A DNA stretch of 64,000 nucleotides from Nageia nagi (Eukaryota; Plantae; Pinophyta), in contig JBITNC010000001.1 of the NCBI GenBank assembly GCA_050084985.1, forward strand, positions 17,670,001 to 17,734,000. Reading direction: 5' to 3'. The notes beneath the pieces are model-generated. The model was not told where the DNA came from, ran no database searches, and saw only the letters and a list, made by a program, of their open reading frames with translations. Of this stretch, positions 15,162-51,939 are shown piece after piece. How positions within the stretch are numbered: the first letter of the stretch is position 1; every line of letters begins with the position of its first letter. Position numbers and translations under genes: made by a program.

Positions 15162-15341
15162 CCATCCTGCCTCTAGATGATATAAAACGGTAGGTTGATT
15201 AGCTTAGAGCATAGTAAAGCAGGTGACAGGAATATTAACTCACAAATTTATATGGACCTATTCAGTGCTTGCGTTAATGGAAAGTTGTTGGGGTTTGTTA
15301 ACAAAAAGCAAAATAAATAAAGAAAAAAAAAGCTGAGAATG

Positions 15342-17614: not shown

Positions 17615-17828
17615 CATAGAATAAAAATACAATTTTTTTAACAAATACGATCTGGGGCCAAATATGAAGAAAACGGTAAAAACGACAAAAAAATACGGGA
17701 AAAATGGGGAAAAGACGTCAAAAATACAATAGAATGTAAGTGTTTTAAAATATGGTTAAATTCGGCATGCCTTAAAAAACACGTTTAAACGGAAAATACA
17801 TGTTTAAACGAAGTTTTTTTATTCTATG
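17615..17828. mobile_element. hAT-type MITE (214 bp)
   Basis: TIR CATAGAATAAAAA / TTTTTATTCTATG; perfect 8-bp TSD ATTAATAT. Confidence 0.93.
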
Positions 17829-17926
17829 ATTAATATGCAGGTTTCTATCATTTGATACTCCCAAGCGTATATTGACCTATCATCATCAATTATTGTGCCA
17901 ACTTTGATCAAGTTTACATCTTTGAG

Positions 17927-20900: not shown

Positions 20901-21739
20901 TGATAATCTATGAAACTATGGTGTGGAAGCTAGTTTTGGGTGCATTGACCAATTTGCTCCCCGTATAATGCTGGCAATCATCTTGCAACCATTGCTTGAG
21001 CAAATTTGTGGGCTTACTCAACCCACGGCTAAAGGCCATAAAGTCTTTCTCAATGTAAATCATTCCTTCATTGGACAAGTTGAAAGCCTCTTCGATTCCT
21101 TTCATTGAAAAGTCCATCGGTTGGTTGTCCGGTAATTCTACACAAAAGATTGATAATCTATGAAACTATGGTGTGAAAGCTAGTTCTAGGTGGATTGACC
21201 AATTTACTCCCATATAATGTTGGCAATCATCTTGCAACCACTGCTTGAGCAAATATGTGGGCTTACTCAACCCATAGTAAAAGGCCATAGTCTTTCTTTG
21301 TGTAAATCATTCCTTTGTTGGACAACTTGAAAGCCTCTTTGATTCCTTTCATTGAAAAGTGCATGATTTTGTGTCTTGCGGTATCAAAGAGAACTCTCTC
21401 TAAAAAATTACATCATTTCCCCACTTCCAAACACAATTCTTGGAATGAGGCAGCAGTAGGAATGATGCCTATATCAACCAATCATGATGTGTATAATACT
21501 TCCCAAGACAAGGCAATCTTATCAATGCTTTTAATAACATCCTTCTCAAAACTGATCAGGGTTTCCCTCACCAACCACTTTGAGCAAGGGGAAAGTGACT
21601 TCTAAAGGTTATCTTTAACAACCTTGGCTTTTACTGGCTTCTTCCCCTTTTCCTTACTGCCTATTCCCTTGTTTCTCCTTCTGGATGTTCCAACTTCTAG
21701 TTCTTGCTCATTCCTTCTTTTCTGGACTTTTGGATCCAT
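17927..21739 (-). pseudogene. Decayed LTR-embedded unknown gene of element Z: basic N-terminus, conserved domain, Ser/acidic tract, coiled-coil-like C-terminus
   Basis: Collinear ORF pieces 21739->20908->20176->19038->18466->17927. Conserved block MDFS.....AF...NAPK.SF...LLCRIIG....KFR.EF.GFI.....G.KIRWS..L.D.....L......KFYMNTYLVYLLL is shared with 37148-32049. Confidence 0.75.
20865..21360. repeat. 250-bp direct tandem duplication inside the Z ORF
   Basis: TTGGTTGTCC.TAATTCTACACAAAAGA recurs at 20871 and 21121, and the downstream sequence is duplicated with substitutions. Confidence 0.9.
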
Positions 21740-23038
21740 GTTTAAGATTTTGACGTACCTGCTATAGGAGAACAAGATTAACCCTAAGCTACTATGGAAG
21801 AGTAAAATGGGGGCGAACTAGATATCGACAATCTCATGATGGAGACAAATTAGATCAATTTGGGGAACCATGGTTTTGACAATACAATAGAAAAAGTAAT
21901 GGTGTAACAAACAGAAGGGAACTAACTCTAACTAGGTCACACCAAAACAAACATATGTGAGAATCAAACTTTAAGATAGATGCAACCAAAATGATTTAAC
22001 TTTTTCACCAGATACAATGAACAATAGCAAAGCAAGCAACTACCTATGAATGAATTTTGACCTTGATAATTTTCTCTAACAAAGCTTAACTCTCTCGCTC
22101 GACGAACTTCGCCTGACAAACGACTGAAAAGATTGGAACAAACAAGGTTACTATGGTAGTTTTGACAAAACAAATAGGGAGAAGACAAACAAAGAGTGTA
22201 GGTGGATAAACAAAGGGTTTACTCTTTATACCACAATAGTTTACTGGCTTTCACACCTAGGTAGCTTAGTTTCTAAAGGCTATTCCAACAATCTCCTGGA
22301 AACAAGCGATCAAATTTGAGTGACAGTAATATGAAAACTGAAAGAATATGTCATTTCTTATAAATCCTTTTGAGACAAATGGTGCTTTGCATGTTCCTAT
22401 GAACCAAATTCTGACACTTGGCGAACTATTCCAATGATCTGAAACGGTCGCTCACTTTTAGCAACTTGAAATTTTATGTCGTCATCTGAATGAAGTATTG
22501 AATTTGCTATGTGCACTAGTGAAAATTGGCAAATTCCTTTTCTCCATGTCGCAAATTTTAAGCATCTATCTTTGCATAGACTTGATATCATGTGACCTCC
22601 TTTTTCAAATCTTTACTTGCCAAGCACAAGGGTGTGAGCTTTGGCTCAACAATTTCAAACCTTTTGCAAATTTTCGATCAGGTCGCAAGTTTGGACAATA
22701 ATGCCTATAGCACTTCCATTGGAATGTGCGATTAGCCTTGAGGTCTTGTTAATCTGCAATAAACTTATTCTGCTCCTCCAAAATGCCACATTTTGATTAA
22801 TTTCAGTTTGGGAAACCTCTTATACATTCATCTGGCAATTATCTATCATTCTGGATGAGGTCGCATGTTCTCAGGATAGTGCCCTGGTTGCTTGTTATAG
22901 AAGACTTGCGTCTCACACTGTCATCAAATCGTGCAACTCACTTGCCTATTGGTTAATTGCATGAGGCGAGATTTTTCTCTTGCTATTGGAGTTCCTTGAT
23001 GTCTTGTGTCAATCTAATGAGCAATAAACGACATATAT

Positions 23039-24907
23039 TGTAAGGATCCAAAACACAAATCAAGTGCAATTAAACCCAAAAACACAAATATGCACCAAAC
23101 GTTTGGTCCAAAAGGGCAATTACAAGCATCAAACACCTCAATATGCCAACGTTAGGGTCAGTGCACCAAACACAAGCTCAATCAACATACAAATGCCAAC
23201 GTATGGCCAGAAGCATATATCAATGATCAAACCCTCACAATGCCAACGTGTGGCTCATACATGCATAAAATAGACAAATACACCACACATTGCAATAATG
23301 GACATGTGCACAAAATAATATGAGATCCGAATGCCCACTGGTTGTATATATTATAAAGAATGTAATGTACCAAAAATAAATATTTTTTGTAAATGTCTCC
23401 TACACTTAATTATAAAAGTGAAAAAGAAGTTCATGTGACTAGGAGACATAACTTAAGTTGTGTTTATTTATGTTTTATATTTTTATTTTGTAATAGGGCA
23501 CTTTAAGTAATTTTAGGGTTGGGAGATGTCAACTCCAAATTAGAATATGAGCTTATAAAAGGGAAGTGGGCATCCCATTTGAGGAAGCTTGTGGATCATC
23601 TATTTTATTATTTTTGAGTGAAGGAGATTCCTTTCTCAACCCAAGTGTGTACGTGTTCATGCATATTTGGATCTCAAGGGTTGTGGGCCTTAGTCTTGGG
23701 GGTGTTTGTACACCTAGAGCTAAAGGTAGCTATTGCTTGGGAGACTTCAGGAGTTGTGGGCCTCAATCTTGGGGATGCTTGCACATCTACAGTTGGAGGT
23801 AGCGATTTCTTGGAGAGATCTTGAGGGTTGGAGGCCTTGCATGGGAGCCTAGCCTCATTCTGTTGCATCATTTTCAGATCTGGCCAATTTGTGGCATTTT
23901 TGTGAGCTTGGATCTGCATTTGTGGCACTTTAGCTATTGTATTGGTTTGACATCATTTTTTTAATAAAATTCCTTGGCTGATTCTCTCCATTATTTTGCA
24001 TATTTTTCTGAGTTTTGACATTGTTCCTTGGCTGCAAGTTTATTTCTGTGTTTTGAGCATTCACTTGAGCAATAAAAATAAAAAGAACATTACAAAGAAC
24101 GAATAGCAATACAATACCAAGCTCCCAGAGCTGGACATTGGCCTCTAAGGAGCCAACTAGGGCAAGTTGTGTATCCTCAATGTTGGATGGGCAAGTAGAA
24201 CCATGGGACAACCTCGCTCCCTCAGAACCTGAATCCTCTCCACCAAAGGAGCCCTCCTCTAATCCTAAAGGCCAATTGAATGGCAGAAGCTCAACCTAGG
24301 AATACCACCGGATGGGCAAAGGTGCTACACCAATGCCATAGACAATCAAGATCCCTCAACCTGATGGCCCTTCTAGATGTTGCACCTAGGGGATTGCTCA
24401 GCGCCGCTAAGACTTGTGTCCACATGACGGTATCAATGAGATAGTAGAATAATCAGGTATATCCAACAATGAGGCTCCAGTGCCTCTTTATACACTCAAC
24501 TTTGTTTGGATCTCACCTAAGAGTCATCACCCGACTCCTTAATCCCAACGTTAGCCTTCTAGGGGCCCAGAATGCCCAATGTGGGTCAAGCATGCAAACG
24601 TGGGGGCCTGGAGTGCCATAAATGCCAACGTGGGGGCCTGGAGTGCCATAAATGCCAACGTGGGGGTCTAGTAGTGCCACGCATGCCCAACGTGGGTCCG
24701 GGAGCCATGCGTGGGGTCTAGGTGTCATAATGGGCCAATGTGCGGGTCTACGAGTCTCCCAACTTGGGGCTCACAATGGGTTCCATAGACCCATTAAGTC
24801 TTCTATCCCAAGTTACAATATGAAAGTACAATGCAATGATAAAACATATTACAAGAGGAATCCGTTGGATTCCACAATTAATTACAATCATGTAAGGGGA
24901 CGTAACA
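23039..24907 (-). mobile_element. Solo LTR, family A, nested in Z and itself interrupted by a PDS5-family solo LTR
   Basis: TGTAAGGATCC...GGACGTAACA; TSD TATAT/TCTAT (1 mismatch); homologous to 54124-55286. Confidence 0.85.
23361..24094 (+). mobile_element. Solo LTR of the PDS5-carrying family (734 bp)
   Basis: TGTAATGT...ACATTACA; perfect TSD AAGAA; near-identical reverse complement of 3605-4336. Confidence 0.95.
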
Positions 24908-26577
24908 TCTATGCTAGGTCGCACGAATTCAATGAGTGGGTTAGGTCGCATGTTTTTGAGACAATGCCCTTTACACACCCTTCAAAATGCGACTAACCTT
25001 TTTCCAGTGACATGATAACTGAGCCAGGCCACAACGATATCTCCTTCAGGTCTCGCGAACTTGATAAATGAGCCAGGCCATGTGTTTTCTTAGCATTGCT
25101 TTTTACACTCTCCTCAAATCATGCAACTAGCTCTTCCTTAGGCAAATAGTGGAAAACGATGATCAACTCATGGTATTTATATAGCTCCAACATGCCAGGT
25201 GGGTCCATTTTATCGAGCCAGGTGTTCATTTGAATACGATCGCATGTTTGGGCCGATTAGGCTAGGTTGCATGGTTTAAAATACTTGCTTTTGGCATACA
25301 CTTGAAATCACACGACCTCCTTTTCCCTTGCTCGCATGATGCTCAAATGAGGATCTAAGACCCTTTTCCCTTGCTTGCATGATTTTGAAAACTAGCTTGG
25401 GGCATCACTTTTGAAACGCGCAACCAACTTCTCTTTGACTTGTGCATATGCCAAAATGTAAGGGGTTGCTCTCTTTTATGTCCTTGTTGACTTGATTTTC
25501 GAGAACAAAGCCTAGGTCACATATTTTCAAACACTTGTCCAAGGCACTCTTTTTGAAACGCGGGATCACATTATTTTCTCATTTTGGTCACTTGTTTTTT
25601 GAAAGTATCCTTTTGCATACTTCTAAAACCATCCGACCTACTATTTTCAGCTAACTTTGGTCGCTCATTTCTTCGAACACACCTTTTGCATTCCTCCCAA
25701 AAGCACGACCTCTCCATACTTAGAAATTTTTTGCTCAAATTGAGGTTGGCTAGCCAATATTTGCAATTTTTGGAGGTTTCACTTCTTTTACTATGCCCGG
25801 ATCACTTTCTTGAAAAAACAATCACTTTGACACCTTAAAATGTGCGACCCAAAACAGGAAATTTTTGCCATAATGAACCTTCTTTGGTCGCACCCTTTAT
25901 AAACTTAGCTCATGCACTCTCTTGAAAATATGCAACCTTAAGTGAACTTGTGCAAATCTTCAAGGTCTTAGAAACTTTTGAAGGGTTTTAGCTAAGGCAT
26001 GCTAATTCCATTTTTAGCTCTTGTTTTTCCTGGAATTTACTTGTTGAAGGTACCATTTTGCAAAAAAGTAGGATCCCTAAATTTACGAAAATTAAGCGTG
26101 CGTTGTGCCGGCACAACAGAATCCACATGTCTAAGATTCAACTACGTATTGTTTTTGTATTCTAAAGAAATATTTGCCCACAGGCATTTCAGTATATTAT
26201 TTGAACTGGAACCGGAATGTTCCTGAAACACACAAAGTACCCAACACATTTTTTCCACTCTTCCTCTTCCTGTCTCAGGATAGTTTGAATTGATATTGCT
26301 TTCATATTCTATTTTCACATTGAATAACGCACAAGCATGTATACTTAGTATACAATAATCTTAGCATTTTAGTAGACATTCCTATGTTTGTTTCCATTTC
26401 AAGATACAAAAGAAAGAATAATATTTATTTTCATGGAATAATAATGCAATATATTTAAAAATCAAGGAATCTAGAAGTAGCATATTACTTATTACTTTGC
26501 AGACTTAGAATTACTAAGTCACAATATTTTTTAACTTTGAAATGCACTAACAATGAATTCCAGAAGAAATACAATAC

Positions 26578-27065: not shown

Positions 27066-27153
27066 CTGCAGTGATTATTTTTTAAAACATCAGTTTTGAC
27101 GGTTTTCAAAAGAATCTTATGATTAACTAAAAACCAAGATTCCATTCAAATAC

Positions 27154-30160: not shown

Positions 30161-32048
30161 CATCAAATTGGAAAAGACTCGAAAAAATTCTCTACAGTTC
30201 TATCGCAGCAAAAGATGTTAAGAGCCATGAAGCATTTAAGTCTTAAAGACTAGCATTGACAAATTTTTAACTTACCTTTGCAAGCGGCGATGACAAATGT
30301 GCATCTAGTCAACTTGTAGAGAAAGCACTTCATATCTAGCACTATGAAACCTACCATAACAATTTCTTTGCTAAAGCTTTGGAAGCAAAGGCAATCAATT
30401 GCATATCTAGTTATCATGTAGCAAATACGCTTCATCATTATCATTGTGAAACTTACTTTTATAATTTCTCTGCTTATCTTTCGTAGTGACCATGGTAAAG
30501 GGTATATCTAGCCATGTTGTGGCAAAGGTATTTGAGATACTCATAGCGAAAGAAGGGAAAACAATTGACCTTCCGCATTCAAGAATCCTAGATGACCTAA
30601 GGAGATTTACACAATTGTCATTCATTCCTTGAAGGACGAATGAGTTTCAAAGTCAAAGAAGATCAATCCCATCAAACTAAAAATTGGCATAAATCAATGG
30701 CTATTGCAATTCTTTCTACTTTTGGAAGATCCCATTGACCTCTAGATCATCATGTACAAACATGGTGTTGCTTTGTCTTTTTGAGAGCAAACGAAATTGC
30801 TACATGGCATATTTTAGACATGTTAACAAATACTATGGAAGAGCAAGTGCAAATTTTATAGTCACAAGAATCGGATCAAAACCTAATTGTGGTTGTTACA
30901 CACATATGTCAAGTGTTGGGGGCTTTTTCTTTAAAACCTTGCTGATGGGCAAATGAGCTTCCAAGGCTTGTGGGAAGACACCAACACCTAGGTGATAGGG
31001 CATGACCCCTACCCGCTATGAGGACTGGTTACCTCAAAGGTCTCATGATGGTGTGTGCGAGAGGTTGATCAGGAGACTGGTTGAGATGTTTGAAGTTGTT
31101 CCCAACTCAAATATCATTTGTTTATCAAGGACTCAAAGGGTCCCTGTCTCTAGGAAGTGGTTGTTTCTCAAACAAAATAAAAAAAGGTGGGTTGCGAAAG
31201 ACGCGCAAAAAAATGAAAAATAAAGAAAAAGGTTGAGTAGACAGTGATATGTGAGTTCAGCACAAAAGTTCAATGATCTCACCGACTAGTACAAATTTTA
31301 AGAATCAACTCTAACGGGCTTGTCATGGGTTCCACGCACTCCAAATCCACCTTACTAGTCAACAACATGAATGACCTAGCAAGAGGAGCTTGAAGCTAAG
31401 GTGATGATGACAAATGATGAGATGTAGGTAGAGCTCGGACGAGGGAGTGAAGTTCCTATGTTAAGCGACATATGGAAGCCATCTCAAAGTGTACAAGTCT
31501 ATATTGCAAACTATGAATTGTTATACAACCATGCACTTCTTGAAGTACTTCTAAAAGTGTTCAAGCACTCTTTTGTCCACTTTAAGCAAGATTTACAAAA
31601 TGTACCAAGTATTCAAGACAACACAAGATAGTAACATCCATTCACATTCATAGTTCCAAATGAGAGCATTCACTTATTCATTTACTTGAAATAAATCACA
31701 TTCACAAAATGGAGGAAACTTGCAAGCTTGAAAGTATTAAGTTGTCCAATTTGCAAAATGTCTAATCCTCTACAAATGAGCCCAAATGGGCTATAAATAG
31801 TTTTCTTGGCAACACTAGATGTTGCCCTAACCCTAATTCCAAAATACGAGAAAATACAAATGGACAAATCACAAATTGCCAAATGGCATTACAAAATGCC
31901 AAATGGCATTACAAAATGTCTTCCACGCTTGTGGGAGCAAATCCTCATCCATCGCAAGCTTGGGAATTAAATAACCAATATAATAAAAGTATTTTATCAT
32001 AACATGTGTCTTTTCTTGGAAATAAACAACAAACTATGAAAATTGTGA

Positions 32049-35000
32049 CTAAGATGAATGTGGGCCCAACGCCTTAATGTGTCCCTCGAAATCCTCGTCC
32101 AAGAATTTCACTGTGAGTTCCAATCCATGCAACATCTCTAACATCTTTGGAGCATTCCCAGCAACACAACGTTCAACCTCTTCAAACATCCTTTGCATGT
32201 CATTCTTCCAGGCATGAGCTCTCAACAGGTGTCTCAAGTGACTTCCAGTCTGATAGGTGTTGCCATCATCGATCATGATTAAGCTATGAAGGAAGTGTTG
32301 GCCAGGTCCTTATTTATGATGGTAGCATCATCATCTATGAATTTGACCTGTAAATCCATTTGTTCAAGGCTGGTGTTGGCCTTGTTGTTGAGTGCTTCGA
32401 CCTCCTTTTGCACTTCCTAGAAACAAATAGCTATCTGATTGACAACACCCAAGTAGAACTAGTAATATTCACAAAACTTCACATCCTCAAGCCTTCGACC
32501 TTGTGTCATCTCAAATCTCATTATCATTAGCTTTCGGGAATCTAGGATTCTGAGAAGGCTAGCTCTCTCCACCACAATGTCCTTTAACTTTTGTTCCTCA
32601 AGTGTGGCCCTCTGCAATGCACCAACGAACTGCTAAACCACCACCAAGACCTCATCGATTACCTTCTATTTTACTACAATCATACCCTCCTTGACGGATT
32701 TTATCTTTCGAAGCTCCTCCGTGGGTACCTTTGCTAACTCTAACTCTCTAGTCAATCTTTTTTTAGCAGCTAACTCCTTCTTGAGGCCTTTTATTTCTTT
32801 TTATTTCATCATCCCATCTTTAGGAATTGCCTCAATGTTGGATATGATCGCATGTTTCTGCCCTACCACTCCAATGGGACCTGTATTGATGATTTGGTTT
32901 ATTTGTCTAAGGTCTTCAAGTCATTATGGATTGTCTTTGTCGGCGATTATAGAATTGATGTGAATCGCATTATTGGCCAAATGCACATAAGTCTAGGTCT
33001 TACCCAGGCGAGTAAAGCTTTTGTGACAATCTAAAATCACCCTCGGCAAAAACAACTCCAACTATGGTATTCCAACCCTCAACTAATGAAGGAAACACAC
33101 CCACGTTGGGCCCCTTGGGCATCCAATGACACTACAATGCAAACGTGAGCCTCCCAAGGCCTCCACGCAACTCCTACACCCTAACATCAGCCCTCTAGGG
33201 CACACACCAACACTTGGCACCTCAACGAATGCCTCACAGATGAATATGCAATGCTTGTACACCCACAAATGCAATAAAGCTTCCAACACCAGTATGCAAG
33301 AGACACACACACACATACATAAACAATGGACAACACAATGGAGAGAGAGACACAAGTTGTATTTTATTATGGTATGAAAATGGAATACAATGAGGATCTC
33401 AACAAATCAGATCTAGGGTTCCAAACCCTCTTCAAGTCGAACACACTGCAGAAAAGACTCACTTCCTTAGTATCCAAATCCTCTCCTGCAAAGGAGCCTC
33501 TTCGAACCCTAGCAACCAATGAAGGTAGAAGCTTGTCCTCAGAATACCACCGGATAGACTAGGTGACCCACCTAAGTCATAGAATGCCAGGCTCCCAACC
33601 CTATCACTCCTCGAGACGTCGTCTAGGAATAATGTTCAGCACCACCAAGACTTGAATGCCCAATCGGGTTCAACATAGAAGAAGTATAATCAATAGCTAA
33701 CCTCCTCATGGAACTCCATCCTCAATATATAGCCTCACGTGTCTATCCATCATACCTTGTTATCATCCCAAGCCAAGTCTATTCCAACGTTGGGGTCAAC
33801 AGGTCAACCATGCCAACATGGGGGTCATATTGGCCCAATATGCTAACGTGGGGGTCCCATGGGCTTAGTGTGCCAACATGGGGGTCATAAAGGCCCTCAA
33901 GGCTGACATGGGGTCTAATGGGCCTCCTCAAGCTGACGTGGGGGTCCAAGTGACCTCATAAGCCAACGTGGAGTAAGCGGGGCCCTCCCAACACAATGAT
34001 GAGAGACACAATTATGTATTTTATTATGGAATGGAGGTGGAATACAATGAGGATCTCAATATCTAGATCTAGGGTTCCAAACCCTTTGCAAGTCGAGCAC
34101 CACAGGAAAGACTCACTCCCTTAGACTCTGAATCCTCTCCTGCGAAGGAGCCTCCTCGAACTCTGGCGACCATTGAAGGTAGAACCTCGCCCTCGAAATA
34201 CCATCGAATGGACTAGGTGACCCATCTAAGTCATAGAGTGCCAAGCTCCCAACCCTGTCACCCCTCTAGATGTCGTCTAGGAATAATGCTCAACACTACC
34301 AAGACTTTAATGCTTAATCGGGTTCAATACAGAAGAAGTATATTCAATAGCTAACCTCCTAATGGAGCTCCATCCTCAATATATAGCCTCATGTGTCTAT
34401 CCATCATACCTTGCTATCATCCCAAGCCAAGTCTATTCCAACGTTGGGGTCAACAAGTCAACCATGCCAACGTGGGGGTCATATTGGCCCAATATGCTAA
34501 TGTGGGGGTCCCATGGGCCCAGTGTGCCAATGTGGGGGTCATAAAGGCCTTCAAGGCTGACGTGGGGTCTAATGGGCCTCCTCAAGCTGACGTGGGGGTC
34601 CAAGTGACCTCATAAGCCAACGTGGGGTAAGTGGGGCCCTCCCAACGCTGGTGTATCCTTCTGCTCACTCTGGCCTATACAAGACTCATGCCTATCTAAG
34701 GATTCCCACAATTCGGGATAACCCATTACAAACTAATACAACACTACTCAAGGGGAGACGTCCCATTACTGGGCTCACAATGGGGTCCACAGACCATAAG
34801 CTCCTGCTTGAGTTACACATGTACAACAAGACCATGAACAAACACTAGATTACAAAGTGACCATGACACATTTTTTCAATGGTCCAAATGGGACATCACA
34901 ACTTTCTCCAACCTGATCATTCTCTTCTCTAACTCCAAACTTGTCCCCTACATCCATGTTAAACACGTACAAACACTCTTCCATGTTAACACCCATTCAT

Positions 35001-37148
35001 CTGTGGATGATAGTTGATGGGTTCCAACAACTACCTCCTGAATGGGTGGTGCTTTTCCTGGCCCTTTTCAAGGGTCTCTCTTCTTCACTGCGATCTCCTA
35101 AAACCTCTATCGATCGAGACTAGAAAGGCCTTTTTTTTTAACAGTGCTCTTTTTTGTACTGACTCTGAAGCTCGACCCTTACCCTTAGCTGTCGAAGGTT
35201 TCAAGGAAGTAGGCTTTTAAACAACCTTCACGATTTCTAAAGATTTGTCCTCTTGTTGGGTATCTGGAACATCATTGCGTTGCGTTGTACTCACTTCCTA
35301 CTCATCTTTTGATTCAGCTACTTTTCCTTCCTCTTGACTATCATTAGGTAAGTACCTAGAACTAGAGGATGAGGGGGACCCAAATGGCAGAACGACTGGT
35401 GATGGACATGCAGTTGATTCTCTAGGTGGTCTTGGCAGTGGGGATGGATCCTTCTCTCTGTTCCTAACACACCTCACCATCTTGTCAGTGGCCACCCGTT
35501 CCAGCTCTCTCACATCATGCTCATCAACGGTGTCCTTGACTTCTTGTACTACCTGTTCCACTAGATTCTTGCCACGTATTGATGCATATTGTCTGATGGG
35601 TTCTTCAACCGTGGTGGGAAACTGAGTCACCCTGGAGGTGGACTCTTGTGGTCTTCTTCCCTTCTGTTGTGACAATCTTTTGTTGATAGTGGCTTCAACA
35701 AGCTGTTGTTGATCATGGGCATCCTTGTGCATCTTGTCACGAATCTTCTTCATTTCTACCTCATTGCTCACATTCCGCAAAGGTTCTTCTTCTCAGAGTG
35801 GCTTATGTTCATATGTTTTCTTCCTCTCCTTCAAGTAAAATTGTTGGATCCTATGCTCAGGGTCATAATGGTTGGCGGCGGGCATCTTCTTGAAGTTGAA
35901 TCTCTCCAACTCCTCCTTCATGGTGTCAACGTCCGCCCAAGTCTTGCACTGATATTCACCCACTATTATTGGCAAGTTTGAAGTAGCCGATTTCTTCTGC
36001 CACACTTGTTCATGTAAATAGGCCAACTGCCTCATCATCTCCATAAGTAATAATTTGTTACTCACAAACCTTGGCAATTGATATGGTTGCACGGCTGATC
36101 CATGGATTCTGATGTAGGAATAGCGTTGGTAATGGAGGAAGAAGTCCCCATGCTTCTTCAACTCATCTTGGGCTAAGTTAGAGATCTTGATCACTGTGAT
36201 TTCTCCTTTAAGCTCCTTGTAGATCTCATACTCCCATCCATCGTTCTTCATGATGAAACTATCCTATCTCCTCTCAAGCTTCCATTTGGGGTAGCATCTC
36301 CAAATGGCATATGTTCCTTTCTCAATCCATGCTACTTTCCCTTTAGTCGTGGCCCTATACTTGTCGTGGAGCAACAAGTATATCAGGTAGGAATTAAGGT
36401 AGAATTTGCATGTGGTGCCCATGGATGATAACTGATCTGTAATAGAGTCACTCAACAACTTGCTCCACTTGATCCTTTCCCCTCTAGCAATCTCTACAAT
36501 GAAGCCAAAGAACTATTTTCTGAATTTGGAAGCATCTTCTTTTCCGAGAATTCTAGACAACATCAAGATCATCAACCCCACTGAAGGGTAGAAATTGGAG
36601 CGAGGGGCATTTATGAGAGCATTCCCCTTGAGTCCATGATGCTCATCCAGCATCCAACTCTTTATTGCAACGACAACCTTGTGAGTCTCTTGGTAGCATG
36701 CTAATGACTTTGCTTTGTTGTATTCAAAATTTCCCTCGGAAGTCCATTGGAATGCCATTCTGATGGCATCAAGGCTGAAGTCCATAATGATGTCTCTTTT
36801 GAGGTCTCGAAGGACTCTCTCTCCCTTTTGCCAATGATGATCAACCTCCATGCACAATTATGGAAAAGGAGCTATAAAGGGGATGAATGCACAGGTGGAG
36901 ATGCTGGAGAAGAACACAATGTCTTGTTTGAGGTCATTGACTGATAACCCATGTATTTTCTCCCTCATTTGCATAGGGTCAACATCTTGCCAATCTGTGT
37001 CTTTGATGGTAGCAAGACCTTTCCTTGAGAATCTAGCCCCTTGGGGAAGGGAGTCTTATCTTTCGCAAATGATGATGATGCAATCTTATCTCAGCCGCTC
37101 GAGATCCCTAGCAAAGTCTTTTGCCGAATTACTCTTGGAAGTAGTCAT
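32049..37148 (-). pseudogene. Decayed LTR-embedded unknown gene of element X, interrupted by solo LTR C1; paralog of the Z gene
   Basis: ATG at 37148; pieces 36857-36513, 36458-36264, 36251-35793, 35780-35298 and 32276-32049. Motifs KFYLNSYLIYLLL and YSYIRIHGS...PY.LPRFVSNKLLLME..RQ are shared with Z. Confidence 0.78.
33022..34900 (-). mobile_element. Solo LTR, family C (C1), with an internal ~655-bp tandem duplication, nested in X
   Basis: TGTGACAATC...GACATCACA; TSD GCTTT/ACTTT; homologous to 52308-53553; block ~33340-33990 is repeated at ~33995-34645. Confidence 0.88.
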
Positions 37149-37363
37149 GATGCTTAAGCTTGCAACGAGGTCTTCCAAGGGTGATGTGTGGGTTTCCAAG
37201 TGGTGAGGGAGGGCATCCAATGTTGGATTGGCTTGTCTCCCAATTGCTAGTGCAAGCCCTAGGATGTAATGACATGAAATTCAAACTCAAAAATCTGCAA
37301 TTTTGGTGCAAAAGTAGAAGATGAGTGCGATTTGAATTTGAGAAAATGAGGTACCCAAGCTTG

Positions 37364-37371
37364 TATTTATA
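37364..37371 (-). promoter_or_regulatory. TATA box (TATAAATA) between the palindrome array and the X ORF
   Basis: Position and flanks are conserved with 41172-41179 in Y and 44952-44959. Confidence 0.6.
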
Positions 37372-37528
37372 GCTGAAACTAGCTTCCAACAAACCCTAGT
37401 CGGCTAGTTCAAGGAGGAAAATACATCTTAATCGTCCAGCTAGCCAACCTCGGGATGTGTGCCTGCATCAAATTTCATGTCGAGTCGGCCAGGACCGGAC
37501 GTGGGGGTTTCAAGGCACCTTCAGGCTC

Positions 37529-38496
37529 GGAGCATGCCCAAAAATGACAAGATTTTGTCTTTCTGGATCATGCGCCAGCCTTGAGGATGAATGCTCTTCT
37601 CACGTTGGCCTTCCTTGCTCCTCTGCTCGTTCAACTTGACACTGAAGCTCACCTTGAGACCTGATCTTGCCTGTTTTTTGCTCTTTCAAGGCGCCAAGCT
37701 CGTAAATTTTGACCTTTAAGCTTGGCCTAGACACTCCCCAAGCTCGGCGCATGGTTCAAAAAGTCAAGTTTTTGTCTTTTGGAATCATGCGCCGGTCTCT
37801 CCAGCCTTTCTAGTTTGAGTACATGATCCAGAAAGACAAGATTTTGTCTTTCTGGGGCATGCGCCAAGTTGGAGATGGCCAGATTTGCCCTTTTGCGAGT
37901 TTTTGCTTCCGCGCCTTAGCCAAATTTTCATGATTTTCTCCTCCCGAAGGCTTCCTAGGTCTGGCGCATGATTCAAAAAGTCGAGATCTTGTCTTTTGAA
38001 ATCATGCGCCAACCCTTTTGGAGTTGCTGGAGCTGATATTGGGGTTTGAGGCTTCATGCCTTGGCCAAATTTTGTCTATAGGATGAACTAGAAAACTTTA
38101 TGGGTTGGGCGCATGGTTCAAAAAGGCAAGATTTTGACTTTTTGAGGCATGCGCCAACCTCCTGGATGCTTGGGTTTGACTTCATCATTCTCGAACTTGT
38201 CCTGTTCTTCCTCCCAGCTTGATCGCATGGTTCAAAAAGACAAGATTTTGTCTTTTGAAATCATGCGCCAGCCTTGAAGTACCTTCTTCTTGCCTTTTTC
38301 GAGTTTGATTCCGATCCGGAGTGCTCCTTGCCCTTGGCGCATACTCCAAAAAGACAAGATTTTGCCTTTTGGAGCATGGGTTGGGCTTGAAAGTGGCCTA
38401 GATTGCCTATTTGGGATTTAACTCCAGTCTGGATGGCTCCCTGACCCAATGGCATGATTCAAAAAGACAAGATTTTTTCTTTTGAAATCATGCGCC
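37529..38496. repeat. Array of eight ~48-bp palindromic units (GGCGCATG-ATTCAAAAAGAC-AAGATTTT-GTCTTTTGAAAT-CATGCGCC) with dissimilar spacers
   Basis: Units at about 37529, 37746, 37817, 37963, 38108, 38222, 38336 and 38449. Confidence 0.92.
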
Positions 38497-39894
38497 AACC
38501 CTAGGAGGAGCCTAGTTTGACTTATTTTTGTCCCGAATTGCCCTGGACTCTCTTGGTTCACCTAAGACCAACTTTTGATTTTCCATACTTAGGCCATTTT
38601 TTGAGGAATTTCAGGTTTTTAGCTTGCTATGACTAAGCCCACCCGAAGGATGAAGCTTGAACCTAGGGGACTCAACATTGAATCAGGATCTTACGACACT
38701 ACTTGGACTAGACAAGACAACAACATGACAATGTTTTCACAAGGGTGTTGAGGGTCCCCAAAATCGCAAGATTTTGGGGCATGTTATGTTTTAGTCACAA
38801 CATCAAGATGACATGAGGATACGAAGGGCCATTTAATCTAAAGTCATTATCTTTACATTAGTGTACATCTGACAAGACCAGTTGAGTAGTCACTAGTAAT
38901 GACCAAACCATGTCAAAATGATTGAAGTTGAAACTCACATTCAAGTAAAGACAAAATATCACTTGAAACATAGATTTACTTTGTGAAGCCATATGTGTTA
39001 TGATACAAAGTGTTGTTCAAAAAATATAAAGTAAAGCACAAAATATCATGATGTGAACATAAGTTGCATAACAATTTGGAAAGTTTGAAAGCATAAATAT
39101 TTAGAAGTTACAAAGTTTGAAAGCATAAATATTTAGAAGTTACAAACTTTGAAAGATTAAAGATTTTCAAGATTTTTGGTATAAATTTGTGTTTCTTATT
39201 AGGACTAGGGGCTAATTGAACTTTTGTTGCAAGAATAATACAAGCTCAAGAAACTTATTCTATAAATTGTTATATTACTTTTATGGAATGAAATTTTGAT
39301 ATTTCATAACATTGCTATATTGCTCTTTGTGAAATAAATAGAATTACAATTTGAAATATGTTGTTTGGGCATGGTTGGTGAAGACTGTTTTTATGCGATA
39401 CTTTTCTTTGCATTTTCATTTTTGATTTGTAGAAACTATTGAATATGGTCTAATGCATTTACATTAACTCATGAGATTTAGTCATATTTTCGCATGTCAA
39501 AACCTAGAATCTGATATTTTAAAACTCATATTTATCACATGCAATTTGTGTCAGATCATTGCATATGGAGATCTCATACTTTGGTTGTACACTATTTGTG
39601 GCAATCTGTTGAGTGCTTGTTTTTCCAACTTGGTTTGTTTAAGGGCCATCCTTATTAACTAGAAGAGATCATTGCCTAAGAGTAGATGAGTTAATTGAAT
39701 TGTCCAAGGATTTCCTCGATAAAAAATCCTATCAACAGGTTCCAAAGCGTCAAAAAGGTAAAAATCATGTATATTAACTCTTTTCACAATTTTGTTTAAA
39801 TATTTTAGCAAATTGTTATTTCATGCTATAATCATTCAATATCAAATTATCATATTTTTCTCATTTTGGTCATTTGGGCATTAGAAGACCTTTC

Positions 39895-42800
39895 TGTTGT
39901 GACTAACACAACATGCCCCAAAATCCTACGATTCTGGGGAACCTAACGCCTTGGTCAAGCATCATCATGTTAAACATAGAAGTTTGTCTAGCCAGACCTA
40001 ATGCTCGTCATCACTGGAAATAGGAAGATCAAATTCGGTGCAATTAGGGAACCCACGACAAGCTCAAACTCAAGCAAGGCAAAGAGGAGCTCCCAAAAGG
40101 CCAGTGCATGCCTCTAAGAGTTGTGTTTGTGACTTTTTCTGGCATGCACCTAACAAGTTCAAAGCCAAATCAATCGAACGCATGCATCCAAAAGACCAGC
40201 ACATGCTCCTAAAAGACCAATTTGTGACTTTTTTCAACATGCACCAGGTGGAAGGAGTCCTTTTGGCAAAGTTTGGGACCAAGTTGAGCAAATCTAAGCC
40301 ATCAAGAAGCTAGCACATTAGGAAAAAAGACAAAATCTTGTGTTTTTTTGGCATGCGCCTGACCAGAAAGGCCACCAGAGTTGAATTTGGACAGTGAGAA
40401 GTCAAACTGAGTCTTCTAGGAACCCAATGCATGCCTCCAAAAGACAAAATCTTGTCTTTTATGGTATGTGCCTTGCCCAGAAGGAGGCCTAAACGACTTT
40501 GAAGGTGAAAACCGGCTAAGGCATGAACACTCAAGCTCGAGATCAGGCACAGAAGGATCCAAGAGGGTTGGCGCATGATCCCAAAACACAAAATGTGGCA
40601 TGCGCTCAGCTCACGAGGAGCTCCGGTTGAGCAAAAAACGTTAAACTTGGCTAAGTCTTTCACTCGAAGGTTCAAAACAAGCAAATCTGGGAATTAGGAG
40701 GCAAGCGCATGTCTTTTTTGGCATGCACTCAAGCTTGGACAACTGGCAGGATGGGCACACGAAAAAAAGATAAAAATTTGACTGTTGTAGCATGCGCCCA
40801 ACTAAGGAGGGAACCTGGAGGAGTTCGAGGTGAAATTTTGACAAGTTTAGGTTCCAAAAAAGACAAAATCATGAGCAACCTGAGGCTAGAAAGGTGACAT
40901 AATGATGAAAGAGACGAGTTGTGGAGCTCGAGAAACTCCCACTAGGATGACTAGCAGCCTCAAGTGGAGTGCATGCAATAAAAAGACAAATTCTTGTGTT
41001 TTTTTGGCATGCGCCAACCTAGAAGACTCCCTCATTCCCTTGTTCCAGATGTTAAGTTGGAAGATTGCAAATTCAAGACTGGCAGGCAACTCAAGATTGA
41101 CCATTTGGGCGGTTGTGATCATTTTACTCCTGATTCTAGTCGACTAGGGTTTTCAAAACTCTAATTTTTCCTATAAATAAGAGGGATTTGGTTTATTTTT
41201 GCAAATTCAAATCATGCTTTCTTCAACATATGTGCTAGGAAAAGGAAAGAACTAGAGCGTCAAGATAGACAAATAATTTCCAAACCCTTTGTGGTGACTT
41301 GAGAAAACCTTCCTCTTCACTTTGCTAAAACGATCACATCAAGTACCTAAATGATGGAGACAAACTCCAAGGCACCAAAGAAAAAGCTCAAGGTGAAAGA
41401 GGTAGTAACCACCAACAATGCCTCATCAAGTCAGAAACCCCGGATTGACCTTATAGCCTCAATAAGAGCATTACACGATGATTCCAGCCAGAGGGTAGAA
41501 GACAAATCCACAGAGACTTACGATGTGAGTAAGTTTGTTTTTAAGGTCAATAATACACTTTTTGTCACCAAAGTCTTCCTAAAAAAAGATCCAACGAAAT
41601 CTCAAGACTTGGAGGTCCATAGTCTAAAGACTGAAGTTGGTGAAGTTAGGACTACTGGGGCAAAGCGAATCAAGGAAGTCACCAAACTCGCCAAGGAACT
41701 GGAGGAAATCCAAGAGAAACAGAGCCTTGAAGGAGAAAGCACATCTTCCAATCCAAATCAATCCAAGACAAGGTGATCGCAAACAGACAGTGGCGTATTC
41801 AACAGGCGAACGATGAAGGCTTCGGGCCAAGTGTTACAAAGGCAAAGAAGATGGACAAGTTTTAGTAGACTTGAGGAGCATTGAGGTGTGGTGTTGCAGT
41901 CGCAATAATTTAATTTAATTGCAATTTTATTTCAAATTTGGATTTTTAAAACTTATTAAATTCAGTAAAGCTTTGTGATGGATGAGGATTTGCTCCCACA
42001 AGTGCTGGAATAAATCTTGTAACACCATGTGGTTGATTCTTATTGGACCACTTTTAATTTTCTTGAAATTCGCATTGGGGTTAGGGCAACACTTAGGGTT
42101 GCCATGAAAAACTATTTATATCCCCTAGATGCTCATTTGAAGGGAGGATGGAATTTTGGAATGTGGACAAAAACATTTGCAAATAGATAAGTAGAATAAT
42201 TTTTCCTATCAAGTACTTGTCTATTGCGAATATGGCATGATCTTTAAGTTGAATTGCACAACTCCATTTCTTTGTTATTATGAGCTTGGACATGTAATGT
42301 TATCATTGATGTGTGTTGCTTAGATGCTTGGAACATTTTGTAAACCTCTTGAGGGGTGGGCAAAAGAGTGGTTGATTATCCCTTCAAAGTGTTGAATGTG
42401 ATGCATAGTTAATGATTGCTCATGGTAGGACACTAGACTTGTATAATTTTGAAGTGTATTCCCCTATGACGTTTAACACGAGAACTTCATCCACATGTTG
42501 AAAGTGTCATCCTTGTGCTCCCTTAGATGCATGCTCCCTTCATTAGACCATTTGTGTTGTTGGCTAGTGCAAGTGGATATCCATTCTTCTAGACCATTCG
42601 TGTTGTTGGCTAGAATGAGAGGATATGTGGATGTGTGGAACTCACAACAAACCCAAAGGAACTTGGCATTCAGACACTGTACCAATCGATGGAGCCATTT
42701 CCAATCTTCCCTCCTACACTTTTTCTTTCATTTTTCACTTTTTCCGCGGTTTTTGCACCCCCATTTATTTATTTACTTGCAGTATTTGAGAAAGAACCCT

Positions 42801-43040
42801 TGTTTAGACATTGAGACAATCTAAGCCCTTGATTAACAAATTTTATTTGAGTTGGTGTTAACTTCAAACATCTTAGTCAGTCTTTGAGTCTTGTTCTTGC
42901 ACATCCATCCAAGAGACCTTTGAGGTAACCAGTCCTCATAGTGGGTAGGGATAATGCCCTTCCACCTAGATGTTGGTTTCTTTGCGAGCCTTGCAACCTT
43001 TTTACCCATCCGCAAGGTAGGAAAGAAAAACTACCCAACA
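39895..43040 (+). mobile_element. Element Y: internally deleted relative of X (3146 bp solo-LTR-like unit)
   Basis: TGTTGTGACTAACACAACA...CCCAACA; TSD CTTTC/CTATC; shares both termini, the palindrome array (40104-41015) and the TATA boxes with X; only a short ORF remains (41351-41776). Confidence 0.85.
40104..41015. repeat. Degenerate palindrome array of element Y, about nine units (GCGCATG...AAAAGACAAAATCTTGTCTTTT...CATGCGCC)
   Basis: Same unit as 37529-38496, more decayed, immediately upstream of the TATA at 41172. Confidence 0.8.
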
Positions 43041-45643: not shown

Positions 45644-48600
45644 CGTTGGAAAGGAAACCTTTCCTCCTACTCGGCGATCGCTTAAACGAGAAAACGACCC
45701 AGCATGTACGTGAGAACGTGTTACTGAACTCCTCTTGTAACGACTTATACCTCAAGGTTTCTATCAGAAAGCTCGTGTCGTTAATACGAGCTTTAAATTG
45801 TGTAGGTCTTGTTTGGGAATCAGCTGAGTGGTGTAGTAGAGATAATAACTGTTAACTCACGTTTTTTGTAGGGAATGAGGTATTTTATCTTGCAATAGTT
45901 CGAAAGTTGCTATAAGTTTAAAGAAAGTGTAAAATAAAGAAAAGAGAAGGGGACGAGAATGTTTCGATACTGGTGAGATGATAAAGAAAAGGTCACAGTG
46001 AAGCAATGTCTACGGTTTCTCACTTATGGATCATTCAAGAAGTCTCATTCGAAGTCCTCCAACTTAAAAATAGAATAACCTCAGTTCAATCTATTCTTAA
46101 GAGGAGCAGGGAGGAAAGCTGACTATCGGTACTCTGCAAGCAGGACCAATGCAATCAAAAGAAAGAAACGACACAACAAGTGCACACAAACTTTGTTTCG
46201 AATGAGGAAATCTAATTTGATGTCATAGAAAGAAGAAAAGCTCAGAATACGTTCACTTACTATGCAAATTATGTATAGAAAATGATTTGGGAGTGATTCA
46301 AAAACTTTTAAAAAAATTCAAAAAAAATTCTTAAAATTCAAAAATTTTCAAAGAAAAACGTAAAAGATTTTAAATCATCTAAAAAAGCCCCAAAATGGTC
46401 AAATCCACAATCTCACAAATGACAAAGCTCTTTGTTTCAAGTACTCCACCACTTTGTATTAAATTCGTGATAAAATTACAAGGATACATCAATTTGCCAA
46501 TTTTCCACAAATTTGCACTAAGAACATTTTGCCTCAAAAGTGACACCCTATGGTCTATTTATAGACTTTTTAGGTCAAATTTGTGGATGTTGCCCTAATT
46601 CTTAAAAAAGCTTTAAAATGCTAAATTGAGATTACAATGTCGTTTTAGTAGGAGAACAATACTCATCCCACTAAAATATGCTAGAAATAAAATATTTACA
46701 AAAATTAATGCCCTCTCTCATGGGTTTCGAGGCATCTTGCATCAACTTGGCAAAATTTGAAGCTTCAAATCATCATTTTGGATCCCTTTGTCAATCTTTT
46801 GAGTTCCTTCCTTCTTTGAATCAGGATTTGCCTACAATGTTATCATTCTGGAAATTTTCAAAGAATTATGAGAAGATTTTTCAAAAAAATGGATTTTTTG
46901 GTATATTTTTCAAAAAAGATGGGGGTTAGGTCCGAAATTTGGAAAATTTTAAAAAAGTGGATTTGAGCTCATGGATGGATGGAGGATGGGATTATAAGGT
47001 ACATGGGAAATTTTGAGAGGTTTTGAGAAAGATTTGAAGTCTTTGGCAAAATTTTCGATTTTCATATCTAGATTTTTTTGGGAGAAAAAAGTGAAAATTT
47101 CCATAGGAATGAAACATGCCTCCTAGATTTTTGAGAACTTAAACTTGCTCAAATCTGAAAATTCCCAAGTTTAAATGAGCTAAAAATGTGCCCTTCCATG
47201 CAATGAAGACAAAATTTTCAAATTTGGAGTAAAATTTATCAATCCTCCTCAAGTTAGGCGCTAGTTTTCACCTCATTGGAATTCTAATCACTTGAAAAAC
47301 TGCGCCTAGCTTCTTGGTGCCTTTAAATTGCTCAAAATTGAAACTTTGAAAGTTTAAATGTGCTTGGAATGGGGTCTTTTATCCATTTATGCTTTCAAAT
47401 TTGCTTTTTGATCAAAAATTCATTTTCCTCCTTGACTTGGGCACCAAAAAAGACTTCATTGGAATTCCACTGGCATGAAAACATGCGCCTATGCTTTTGA
47501 GGCATTTCCTTTGCTCAAAAGTGAAATTTTGTGCATCTAAACCTTCTTGAAATGCCCTTTTCCTTGATCCCAAGCCTTCAAGCTTGATTTTTGGACAAAA
47601 TTTATCTTTTCTCCTCATGCTAGGCTCCAAAATTCATCCCATTGGATTTCCATAGCCATGAAAAGATGCACCTAGCCTTTTGGGCCTCAGAACTTGCTCA
47701 AATTCAAAAAATTCAAGACATAAATGTGCTAGAAATCATCATTTTCACCTGATGGACACCTCAAACTTAATTTTTCATGTTTTTTACACATTTCCCTCCA
47801 AGTTAGGCACCATTTTTCACTACTATCGATTTAGAAAAATTAGGAAAACTACGCCTAGCTTTTAGGTGCTCAAAAATAGCTCAAATTTGATTTTTCCAAG
47901 ACCTAAATGTGCTCAAAATCATTTTTCCAACCCAATGAACCCCTCAAACTTGTGTTTTGATCAAAATTTGTCAAATGTTTTCATTCTAGGCACCATTTTT
48001 CACTCCATTAGAATTCCATAGCCTTGAAAACTTGCGCCTAGCCTTTAGGGTGCTCAAAATCGAAAATTTTGAGATCTAAATGTGCTTAGAATGATGTCTT
48101 CCTTGTTCCCAAGCATCTAAATTTGTTTTCCGAGCAAAAAACACTTCATTTTTTCATTCTAGGCGCCAAAAATCACTCCATTGGATTTCGAATCATTTGA
48201 AAACTCGCGCCTAGGAATTTGGAGGTCTAAACTTGCTCAAAATTGAAAATTCCAAGACCTAAAGTGCCTTTCCGGACTCAAAATGTATATTTCCGACCAC
48301 TCGCGGCATTTCTGAGCTCAAACTTGACCAAAACGCTCTTTCGGGCACCTTTGAACTCAAACTCTACATTTTCAATGATTTTCGAACTCAAACGATGCAA
48401 AAACGACCATTTTCGCCCTTCCGAGCTCAAACTTGTCATTTTCAATCATTTCCGGCCTTTCCAAGCCCAAAGTGTGAAAAAAAAGACCATTTTCGAGCAT
48501 TTCCGACCATTTTGAGCTCAACTTTGCCTTTTTAACCATTTACAAGCTTTCCGAGCTCAAACGGTGCAAAAACGCACATCTTTACTGTACTTACCACTTC

Positions 48601-51600
48601 CAGAATCAAAATTGACCAAAACGCACTTTTTCGTGATAATGACCATTTTTTAGCTTTCCGGTTTTAGAATATATTATACTTAGGTATAATATTTGCTTAA
48701 GTTCTCTAGGAGTATTTTATTCTTTATTCCTAGGTTTAATTATTTTTTAGTTTGTTATGATTAGATCATAACAAATATTTGTCATCTTGTGGATTTTATC
48801 CTCATGCATGGTTATCATGCATTTGTCCACTAGCTTGTACTTTCCCCTATTTATTTGGGCTCTCCTTCATTGTATAATATCAATTCATTATATTTCCTTT
48901 CATGGTATCAAAGCTAAACGGTCTCTAAATCTGCCCTCAAAGTTTGTTTAGCGAATTTGTGAGGAGGGATTGGCCCCACCTCCATTTTTTTGTTACATTC
49001 CAATTTGTTGTGGCAGATGTCCTATTTTTTTATGAGATCCGAAGTGTTGGAATCTTGATACACATAAGATTACGCATCATCCATCTTAACCTCTTAAGCG
49101 TCATTGGTTGGTCGTAGGATGTGGTTTTATTTTTTGGTATTTTCTGGGTGTCTCTAATGAGTTTCCTATAGATGCTTCTTACATGGTGTGACTCTTTGGT
49201 GACTGAATCTGCATTCGTGCTTCTTTGCTGCTCATTTGTGCCTCTGCTGTGTGGATATCTTTGTTGCATTTTATTTTATGGGTCTCCTTGTTTGGCCACC
49301 ATGCGTGGACTTTTGTTTGTCGGGCATGTCTTGCATTGCGATGATTGATTCCATTAGTTCACTAGCCTATACGTTGTCTCTTCACAACTTGCTTGCAAGC
49401 TTGGACGTTGCATGGTTGGTGGCCTGTACTTTGTGTGGGGAGCACATTTTTGTCTAGGCTAAATTATCTTATTGTGGACGCCCACTTGTGCCATATTTGG
49501 CATCGTTCGGCTCTTTGAATGATCTACGTTTTTTTTTGGAGATCGAATTTGTTGTGCTCCTTGTGTGGAGCTCTCCTCATTTTTCATGGGCTCTTCTGTA
49601 GGCTCATCTCCTGCTCTCGGCACCTTTGATACGCACCATCCTAGCCTCCCTGGCAGCTCCTTCCATGGGTGTTTTTAGCATCACATACGCTACCCATATC
49701 TATTGCAGCTCATCTTCGCATGGAAAATCGGCCCTTTTCTATGTGTGTCTTGGCCAAACATCTGCTTCGCTTTTCATCACCGTCTCTTTCACTAGTTCAC
49801 AGCTCGCTTGCTAATTGGATCTCTCCGCTGACTAGACTGCATTTTTGGCGTGCTTGGTTGGCTGAAAAACGTCATATTGAAGATAGACACATTTTTCGAG
49901 TTAATTATTGATCAAATTTGATTTCTGGCAATGGATTTGGATACCCATTTTCGAGATAAACACTTTTGGTTTTTGTCTCACTCAATTTCAAGGTCATTTG
50001 GCAAAGTTACAAGCCTTGGAAGATTTGGATTGCATTCCAATTTCGAATTTTTTGGGCAGTTTCAGTCATCGGTGGTTTTTTTGCCTTATTCTGAGTTTCG
50101 GTGGTTATTTTTCGGAATTGTCAATTTCACAATCTTCTTGGTTCCTGTTGGTCGTTTTGACTATAAATACAACCCCATTTGGTCCACCTACTACCCGAAA
50201 TTTCAGTCGGAAGTTTCAGAATTAGATTATTAATTAAATTGGTCAAATTTAATTTGATTAATTTTCTAAAGTTTTGGGCTCTACGAATTTGATTTTTACC
50301 TCTCAACCAAATTAATTAAATATCTTGAGCTCCAGGTATTCGTTTAGGGTGTCGTTTTTTGCATTGTGGAGCAGACTTTGGGTATTTTTTGATGAACTTG
50401 GTTGTAAGCCTGATCTATAAAGGCATTTTTTTATGGGGGTAATGTTTTTTTGGTATTCTTTTATTGCCTTGTTGGGTGCCTTAACAAGTCTTATAGTGCA
50501 ACTCATGGTTTCTACCCTTGTCCTTAAGGTAGTGTATTTGACTCCTTCGTGGATCTTATGGTGGTCTTTCCATTACCTTATTTTGTGACTTGCTATTTCT
50601 CCTCGTCGGCATTAAGGGGGATTGTCGACTACTAATGCTTCCTCTTTTTGGATGCAACCTCTTTTTTAAGGATCTCAGCATACGAGCTCCAAGCTTGGCT
50701 CTCTAATGACGTGTGCTTTCTTCTTTGCATAAGGACTCCTGGCTTGGCTCTCTAATGATGTGTGCTCCTTATTCTCCATGGTACACGGGCTCCTCGTTGG
50801 TCTCTTGGCTTAGCTCTCTAATGACATGTTCACGAGAATTATGCTACTTTTTTTGCTTGTGGTCTACTAGCTGCATTGCTGATATAATTTTCGTATTGGA
50901 GTTTGTGCCCTAGTTTCAGGTTGAAGGACTCTCTTTGTTGGTGTTGATCAAGTAGTGTTGTGTGGCTCACTGCTGCATATTGGTAGCTCTTTGATCCTGA
51001 TTTATTTGGAGGTTCTTCAGCTTTTGGCTTACAGTTGTTCGTTGGCATCAATCTCTTCACATCATTATACTAGATAAAGTGAGCATGATTTCTTGAGTGG
51101 TGATGGAAGTTATCCACCTTCTTGCTTTTCTTTCTCTCTTTTAGGGGGTAGTTTTTCCTACGGGTTTTTACCTTTTCTCTGCTTATGAGAGATTTTTTGT
51201 ATATGAGTACCTAATCAAGCCTTGTTGCCGAGACTCTTTTTTTTGTGGATGTGCCACTTTACCTCCTTATTCACTTAAGGGGGAGTGTTAGAGTATATTA
51301 TATTTTGGTATAATATTTGTTTAAGTTCTCTAGGAGTATTTTATTCTTTACTTCTAGGTTTAAATATTTGTTAGTTTGTTATGATTAGATCATAACAAAT
51401 ATTTTTCATCTTGTGGATTTTATCCTCACGCATGGTTATCATGCATTTGTCCACTAGCTTGTATTTTGCCCTATTTATTTGGGCTCTCCATTGTATAATA
51501 TCAATTCATTATATTTCCTTTCATCCAAGCTAATACTTGACAAAAACGCTTATCTTTGTCACCTTCGTTACATCCATTGCTCTCGAACTTAAACTTGAGA

Positions 51601-51939
51601 AAAACACTCATTTTCGTCACACTTGACACTTGTGAGCTCACACTTTGCAAAAACGACCCCATCTCCATTGGCTTCATTCTAGACACAAAAAATCCATGCT
51701 TTGATACTCTCTCTCAGATCCTAGCTCCTTAGCTCCAAAATCAGTGATTGGATACTTTGATACTGTTTAGGGTCTTCTTCGCAAGATCTCCTTGAATCAC
51801 TCCCTAATATCATGCTTGCACTCTTTAGAATGAACTATCCGTCGCCAAAAGCCAATTTCAAGGCAATGCACCTCATTGCCTTTGCAAAAATAGGGTCCCC
51901 AAAATCTTGTATTTTGGGGTGTGTTGTGCGGGCACAACA
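45644..51939 (-). mobile_element. Solo LTR B2 (~3.4 kb net), nested in a family A LTR
   Basis: Perfect TSD GGGTC; starts TGTTGTGCCCGCACAACA on the minus strand; reverse-complement homolog of B1. Confidence 0.9.
48662..51523 (+). mobile_element. Structurally complete non-coding LTR element (TRIM-like, copia-type signals), nested in B2
   Basis: ~240-bp LTRs at 48662-48902 and 51286-51523; PBS TGGTATCAAAGC at 48903; PPT AAGGGGGAG ending at 51285; decayed TSD TCCGG/TCCAA; no gag/pol recognisable inside. Confidence 0.88.

Follow-up and report, generated by a model that had tools for sequence, protein, structure and literature searches.

A Palindrome Array before a Gene with a VANC21-Like Predicted Fold in a Probable Solo LTR of Nageia nagi

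A decayed, many-copy element in a 64,000-nucleotide stretch of Nageia nagi DNA (the window) carries eight palindromic units upstream of a gene of its own, ORF1. The top PDB match of the predicted ORF1 fold is VANC21, an anti-silencing protein of Arabidopsis (PDB 9lnj/9lnk). Because the array precedes the element's own gene and the predicted fold resembles VANC21, the element likely made a protein that docked on its own promoter and resisted silencing. Judging from the sequence, the array probably consists of DNA docking sites. That the ORF1 product would read them, in the service of activation or anti-silencing, is a model we hold to be about evenly poised. The units are numbered from the TATA side.

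37528..38497, unstranded: palindrome array of eight 50-bp units, with periods of 217, 72, 145, 145, 114, 114, and 113 bp counted from the TATA side
37528..37577, unstranded: palindrome unit 1, nearest the TATA box
37745..37794, unstranded: palindrome unit 2
37817..37866, unstranded: palindrome unit 3
37962..38011, unstranded: palindrome unit 4
38107..38156, unstranded: palindrome unit 5
38221..38270, unstranded: palindrome unit 6
38335..38384, unstranded: palindrome unit 7, with a degenerate right arm
38448..38497, unstranded: palindrome unit 8

The initial annotation described eight near-perfect inverted repeats with outer arms GGCGCATG/CATGCGCC and inner arms AAAAGAC/GTCTTTT, ending about 160 bp before a TATA box. 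All eight units are present with these arms, and 156 bp separate the edge of unit 1 from the minus-strand TATA box at 37372; the corresponding distance is 154 to 158 bp in five of the seven arrays checked. The repeats are imperfect: seven units pair at 17 to 21 of 25 positions, and unit 7 has 11 pairs in register. Mirrored matches of at least 17/24 occur at seven centers between 37400 and 38600, and none of 200 shuffles contained any such center. Each unit places an inner palindrome of A tract and T tract between two GC-rich, inverted half-sites separated by about 40 bp. The spacers (22 to 167 bp) had been called unrelated, which fails for spacers 6 and 7 (z 7.9) and spacers 3 and 4 (z 5.6). 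Since these pairs resemble each other, the array grew by tandem duplication.

The array belongs to the element E1, whose parts are as follows.

30914..38802, minus strand: E1, a TGTTG...CAACA unit and probable solo LTR of 7,889 bp including a nested insertion, delimited by its ends and an exact TSD
37366..37372, minus strand: TATA box 1, putative ORF1 promoter
34902..37148, minus strand: 5' part of ORF1, broken by stops, a globular domain (the part with the VANC21-matching predicted fold) and then a low-complexity tail
33018..34901, unstranded: nested 1.9-kb insertion of another family that splits ORF1; its joint (33017-34902) is found in contigs of 4/4 runs, and P0003 matches both sides
32100..33017, minus strand: 3' part of ORF1, coiled-coil-like as judged by eye, without a prediction tool
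31790..31830, minus strand: second promoter-like box, TTAGGGCAAC followed by a TATA-like word, 916 bp from the 3' end

E1 is flanked by an exact 5-bp TSD (30909-30913 and 38803-38807) and runs in the order 5' end, array, TATA box, ORF1, second promoter-like box, about 0.9 kb, and 3' end. Four public runs each cover its family in 30 of 30 bins. Among the copies compared (E1 to E5, L037, L039, and L041), the second box lies 0.8 to 0.96 kb before the 3' end in E1 to E4, L037, and L039, is also present in E5, and is unmatched in L041. We read it as the putative main LTR promoter, which would place the array and ORF1 in U3.

The integrase of LTR elements characteristically leaves TG..CA ends flanked by a 5-bp TSD, and both features occur in all seven complete elements (E1 to E5 in the window, L041 and L039 in metagenome contigs). 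The TSD is exact in four and carries one mismatch in three, and E4, E5, and L041 each show a change of a terminal base. From these ends and TSDs, we infer that the E1-type unit is a solo LTR, which is only probable because no PBS, PPT, or gag-pol lies beside any of the seven complete copies. A quite unlikely alternative takes the element as a complete nonautonomous unit of another kind, whose array could serve mobilization rather than anti-silencing. It must contend with the integrase signature, with TSDs shorter than the 9 bp of Mutator elements, with a purine run before one copy (L039:3021), and with another window family that has a tRNA-Met-type PBS and is also found solo. What speaks for it is that every one of the seven complete copies is flanked by a TSD and shows no PBS, PPT, or gag-pol, that loose ends of the 3' terminus show no recognizable PBS, and that solo LTRs are a minority in Pinaceae, according to the portion of the source cited (PMC5751070). 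No transposase family was found among the 90 window ORFs scanned. Long terminal inverted repeats, suggested by head-to-head element pairs, were rejected because every complete element carries its own TSD. The 5' terminus is itself a small palindrome (38782-38802, 39895-39913, 11438-11455, 26101-26118, and 51922-51939), followed in most elements by a second, CCCCAAAAT..ATTTTGGGG.

Nested repeats are abundant in the window, which is plant DNA. Exon-like pieces at 26600-28000 and 6560-6823 on the minus strand (Pfam match at 6560-6823) form an apparent acyl-CoA thioesterase gene, and the nested elements in between apparently occupy a single long intron. A long near-continuous frame at 3-2912 on the minus strand, which matches PDS5 at 2322-2912 and contains two stops, is possibly a processed copy. 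Two 730-bp copies in opposite orientation (3604-4336 and 23361-24095) are 97.7% identical and represent a young insertion family. The LTR ends of two other families bear 30-bp tandem units with a TGCCAACGTGGGG core (24590-24745, 33810-33975, 34465-34630, 45510-45630, and 53115-53280), which presumably recall a tRNA primer site.

ORF1 has evolved under purifying selection. Because VANC21 tops the PDB matches of its predicted fold, the likeness may reflect remote homology rather than mere analogy. Foldseek with the good ORF1 model returned no significant match in the PDB or among viral structures; a first model (35 sequences, pLDDT 43) was poor, gave an empty fold search, and was discarded. The ESM Atlas yielded only matches below 0.9, including Transposase_32 and ATHILA clusters at 0.81, which we treat as leads, and no usable match for a distant relative. 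Pfam does not recognize ORF1. Its relatives include hypothetical proteins of Taxus chinensis (two of the ten looked up), which makes a gymnosperm host likely; no relative was found in viral contigs, where 36 single matches to a loose pattern were taken as chance. No longer fused form was found, which is weak evidence. The frame contains 10 stops in 716 codons, six of them comparable with L042. The initial annotation took the stops to be consistent with C-to-T change; only three of the six are pure C>T/G>A changes.

A pattern search of metagenome contigs gave seven loci, six of them distinct (L043, a duplicate of L041, was left out when units were counted), and the window and these loci together provide 57 units scoring at least 25 bits in 11 arrays. 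Greater conservation of units than of spacers, proposed as a check on a cis-acting role, was found in three copies: identical non-CpG columns make up 69% of units, 65% of the ORF, 54% elsewhere, and 49% of spacers (p 7e-8; p 0.087 and 0.053 for two pairwise tests alone, at loci that had been picked by the unit pattern). Many unit CpGs survive, as previously noted, with 12 of 16 consensus CpGs intact in the eight E1 units and an observed/expected ratio of 0.89. The corresponding ratios are 0.38 for spacers, 0.32 for the ORF, and 0.37 for the window. CpGs are intact at 75/114 unit sites versus 28/94 inferred ORF sites; by the same method, survival in units (14/32) is not clearly higher than in the rest of the element (16/42).

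Covariation of arms, the subject of another proposed check, is absent overall: arms pair at 832 of 1,197 positions within units and at 835 of 1,197 after swapping arms between units of the same array. Only the inner arms show a small pairing excess (p 0.036), and the mismatches (89 G.T and 97 A.C) show no G.U bias. The lack of covariation argues against a role as RNA hairpins, an alternative initially offered in which the units would be a small-RNA source or a packaging or template-switch signal in the 3' LTR of the genomic transcript. Nor would such a role require the constant spacing or helical phase of the units, and Rfam gave no match to them at the gathering score. Every unit does fold (-14.7 to -24.5 kcal/mol, z -3.3 to -7.8), as any palindrome would, from palindromy alone. 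We regard this alternative as very improbable, even with the inner-arm excess and the siRNA hot spots at Sirevirus palindromes described in the cited portion of PMC4728375; hairpin RNA from the units may be a by-product.

The window also contains four sister elements.

39895..43040, plus strand: E2, with the same ends and palindromes, six units scored at about 40100-41016, and a TATA box at 41171; TSD with one mismatch
11256..26118, minus strand: E5, a distant sister with the same terminus; exact TSD
11438..15161, plus strand: E3, without ORF1, with 52-bp inverted half-site units at a period of about 183 bp; exact TSD
45645..51939, minus strand: E4, without ORF1, of the same family as E3; exact TSD

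The same array precedes a different short ORF in E2, L037, and L039. This ORF spans 141 codons in E2 (41351-41776, plus strand), and versions of about 140 codons follow the same array and TATA box at L039:199-609 (minus), L039:10582-10898 (plus), and L037:3293-3502 (plus). Copies share 43 to 69% identity, are unrelated to ORF1, and have no Pfam match above the cutoff. L041 has 10 or 11 units and lacks both TATA box 1 and ORF1. E5 retains an ORF1 homolog (about 17900-21740, 28 to 38% identity) and inverted half-sites of a GGTCGCA-type variant that span 49 to 52 bp without the inner palindrome. Across families, the half-site span is kept and the middle varies, which fits a trans-acting family factor with hitchhikers and equally a host factor. 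The initial annotation had suggested a VANC-analogous module; the predicted fold and the cis-site side (conservation and fixed spacing) lend it partial support, whereas the occurrence of the array with another ORF or with none shows that it is not exclusive to ORF1-bearing copies. Units of the E3/E4 family (12300-13700 and 47100-48300) repeat at about 183 bp, a nucleosome-sized period, as does another array of 51- to 52-bp inverted half-sites at 43500-45100 on the plus strand, ending before a TATA box at 44951. L039:4777-5790 (minus) holds a broken extra ORF with an acidic tail and no Pfam match, about 1.7 kb before a purine run and an element start.

The recurrent periods of about 72, 114, 145, and 217 bp are consistent with whole turns of 10.35 bp. 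According to the period classes that are counted as independent, the p value of the helical-phase test is 0.0007, 0.019, 0.06, or 0.44, and phasing is suggestive. In the 57 units, the columns that vary least are those of the A and T tracts, and the column counts show no CGG-CCG core. Such invariant tracts, the helical periods, and the nucleosome-sized period of E3 and E4 would also suit units that act by DNA shape, with phased A/T tracts between GC-rich ends bending DNA or positioning promoter nucleosomes without a specific reader. Two observations make this improbable: an exact inverted half-site is kept across families with differing middles, and periods of 72 and 114 bp fall short of a nucleosome.

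A more substantial rival, though one we consider unlikely, is that the array is an LTR enhancer for host proteins, either a transcription factor or a PMD/MAIL2-like protein, while ORF1 acts otherwise or binds elsewhere. All DNA-level evidence is compatible with it, as is the presence of the array in copies that have a different ORF or no ORF at all. Host RY sites have the core CATGCA, and E2F-type sites read TTTSSCGC; the half-site here reads CATGCG and no TTTSSCGC occurs, which argues against the RY-like or E2F-like host sites first suggested. The gene directly behind the array also has a predicted fold matching a self-targeting DNA binder. Palindrome clusters upstream of the TATA box are a known LTR feature, and a host enhancer role has been proposed for Sirevirus, as far as the cited portions go (PMC2829016, PMC4728375), but at 50 bp, with about 40 bp between its half-sites, the site here far exceeds the 10- to 20-bp Sirevirus motifs (PMC2829016).

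In the model that we favor, the palindromes would serve as docking sites on double-stranded DNA, located toward the upstream end of a probable retrotransposon LTR, and the element's own ORF1 protein, with its predicted VANC21/PMD fold, would bind them and keep family promoters unsilenced. A dimer or oligomer would read the two inverted half-sites, and in-phase spacing would align the bound complexes along the same helical face. The ORF1 protein would activate its own gene in positive feedback and act in trans on sister LTRs that have the array without the gene, while solo LTRs would keep both the ORF1 gene and its targets.

Tentatively, then, a large gymnosperm retrotransposon family may build a complete VANC-like anti-silencing cassette into its LTR, comprising helically phased operators of 50 bp, a promoter of its own, and a gene for a remotely related VANC/PMD-fold protein; solo LTRs would stay factor sources, gene-less sisters would hitchhike, and protein and operator would codiverge. 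If true, sequence-specific anti-silencing would operate in retroelements that inflate giant genomes, bear on retrotransposon activity in the heavily methylated giga-genomes of gymnosperms, and extend the VANC/PMD module beyond eudicot Mutator elements. In the portions of the VANC/PMD literature consulted, sequence-specific anti-silencing is shown for DNA transposons only, and what PMD/TRP28-type extra ORFs do in plant LTR retrotransposons is described as an open question. In E1, a candidate reader lies directly beside a sharply delimited candidate target, and the sister family E5 has a variant target. Pairing ORF1 with the array would bring together LTR palindrome arrays and VANC/PMD modules, both previously described. 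The literature searched, with subscription journals and Repbase/REXdb outside its scope, contained no gymnosperm LTR-borne gene with a palindrome array; published supplementary figures on PMD clades may already include the ORF1 family.

Among known systems, VANDAL21/VANC21 and VANC6 of Arabidopsis combine element-encoded anti-silencing with family-specific motifs amplified by tandem duplication in noncoding DNA, according to the cited portions (PMC5735166, PMC10398659). VANC proteins are defined by a DUF1985/PMD-related domain. E1 likewise encodes a protein with a matching predicted fold and has a family-specific, tandemly amplified noncoding motif; E5 has a variant half-site, and related families differ in motif. 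In contrast, VANDALs are Mutator-like DNA transposons, whereas E1 is bounded by TG..CA termini within a 5-bp TSD; VANC21 has a 9-mer motif, whereas here a 50-bp palindrome recurs at fixed spacing before one promoter; and VANC shows no sequence similarity to ORF1, the likeness being one of predicted fold.

Sirevirus (Ty1/copia) LTRs carry about 7 to 14 CpG-rich, family-specific palindromes in their upstream half, before the TATA box (PMC2829016, PMC4728375), and E1 shares this number, placement, CpG richness, and family specificity. Their motifs measure 10 to 20 bp with a CGG-CCG core, unlike the 50-bp units here, and the cited portions describe no LTR-borne reader gene, whereas in E1 a gene inside the element follows the array.

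Tat, Ogre, and Retand Ty3 elements have an extra ORF with a PMD-like (PMD/TRP28) domain and a coiled-coil part, and gymnosperm Tat lineage III carries a PMD extra ORF with tandem arrays nearby; a regulatory DNA-binding role is only proposed in the cited portions (PMC4408406, PMC11963269). E1 resembles them in its extra ORF, with a predicted PMD-like fold and a coiled-coil-like part, and in its adjacent tandem arrays. Their ORFs are described there as internal, either antisense close to the 3' end or in sense orientation ahead of gag, whereas ORF1 lies within a TG..CA unit with its own TATA box and is unrecognized by Pfam. An RNase H fragment in L039 that at first hinted at Tat lineage III was rejected as a sign of it: the fragment follows a zf-RVT domain and is probably LINE derived. 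Assignment to that lineage would rest on RT phylogeny, a C-terminal additional RNase H, and an antisense internal ORF, and no pol adjoins E1.

Finally, the host PMD-C proteins MAIL1, MAIN, and MAIL2 are paired with the promoter motifs M1M/M2M, palindromic for MAIL2, and oppose silencing (bioRxiv 2024.09.27.615353). They share with E1 a promoter motif paired with a PMD/VANC-type fold, which in ORF1 is a predicted one. As described in the portion cited, that system consists of host genes with single short motifs, a link to Polycomb, and putative binding, whereas here the array is the transposon's own.
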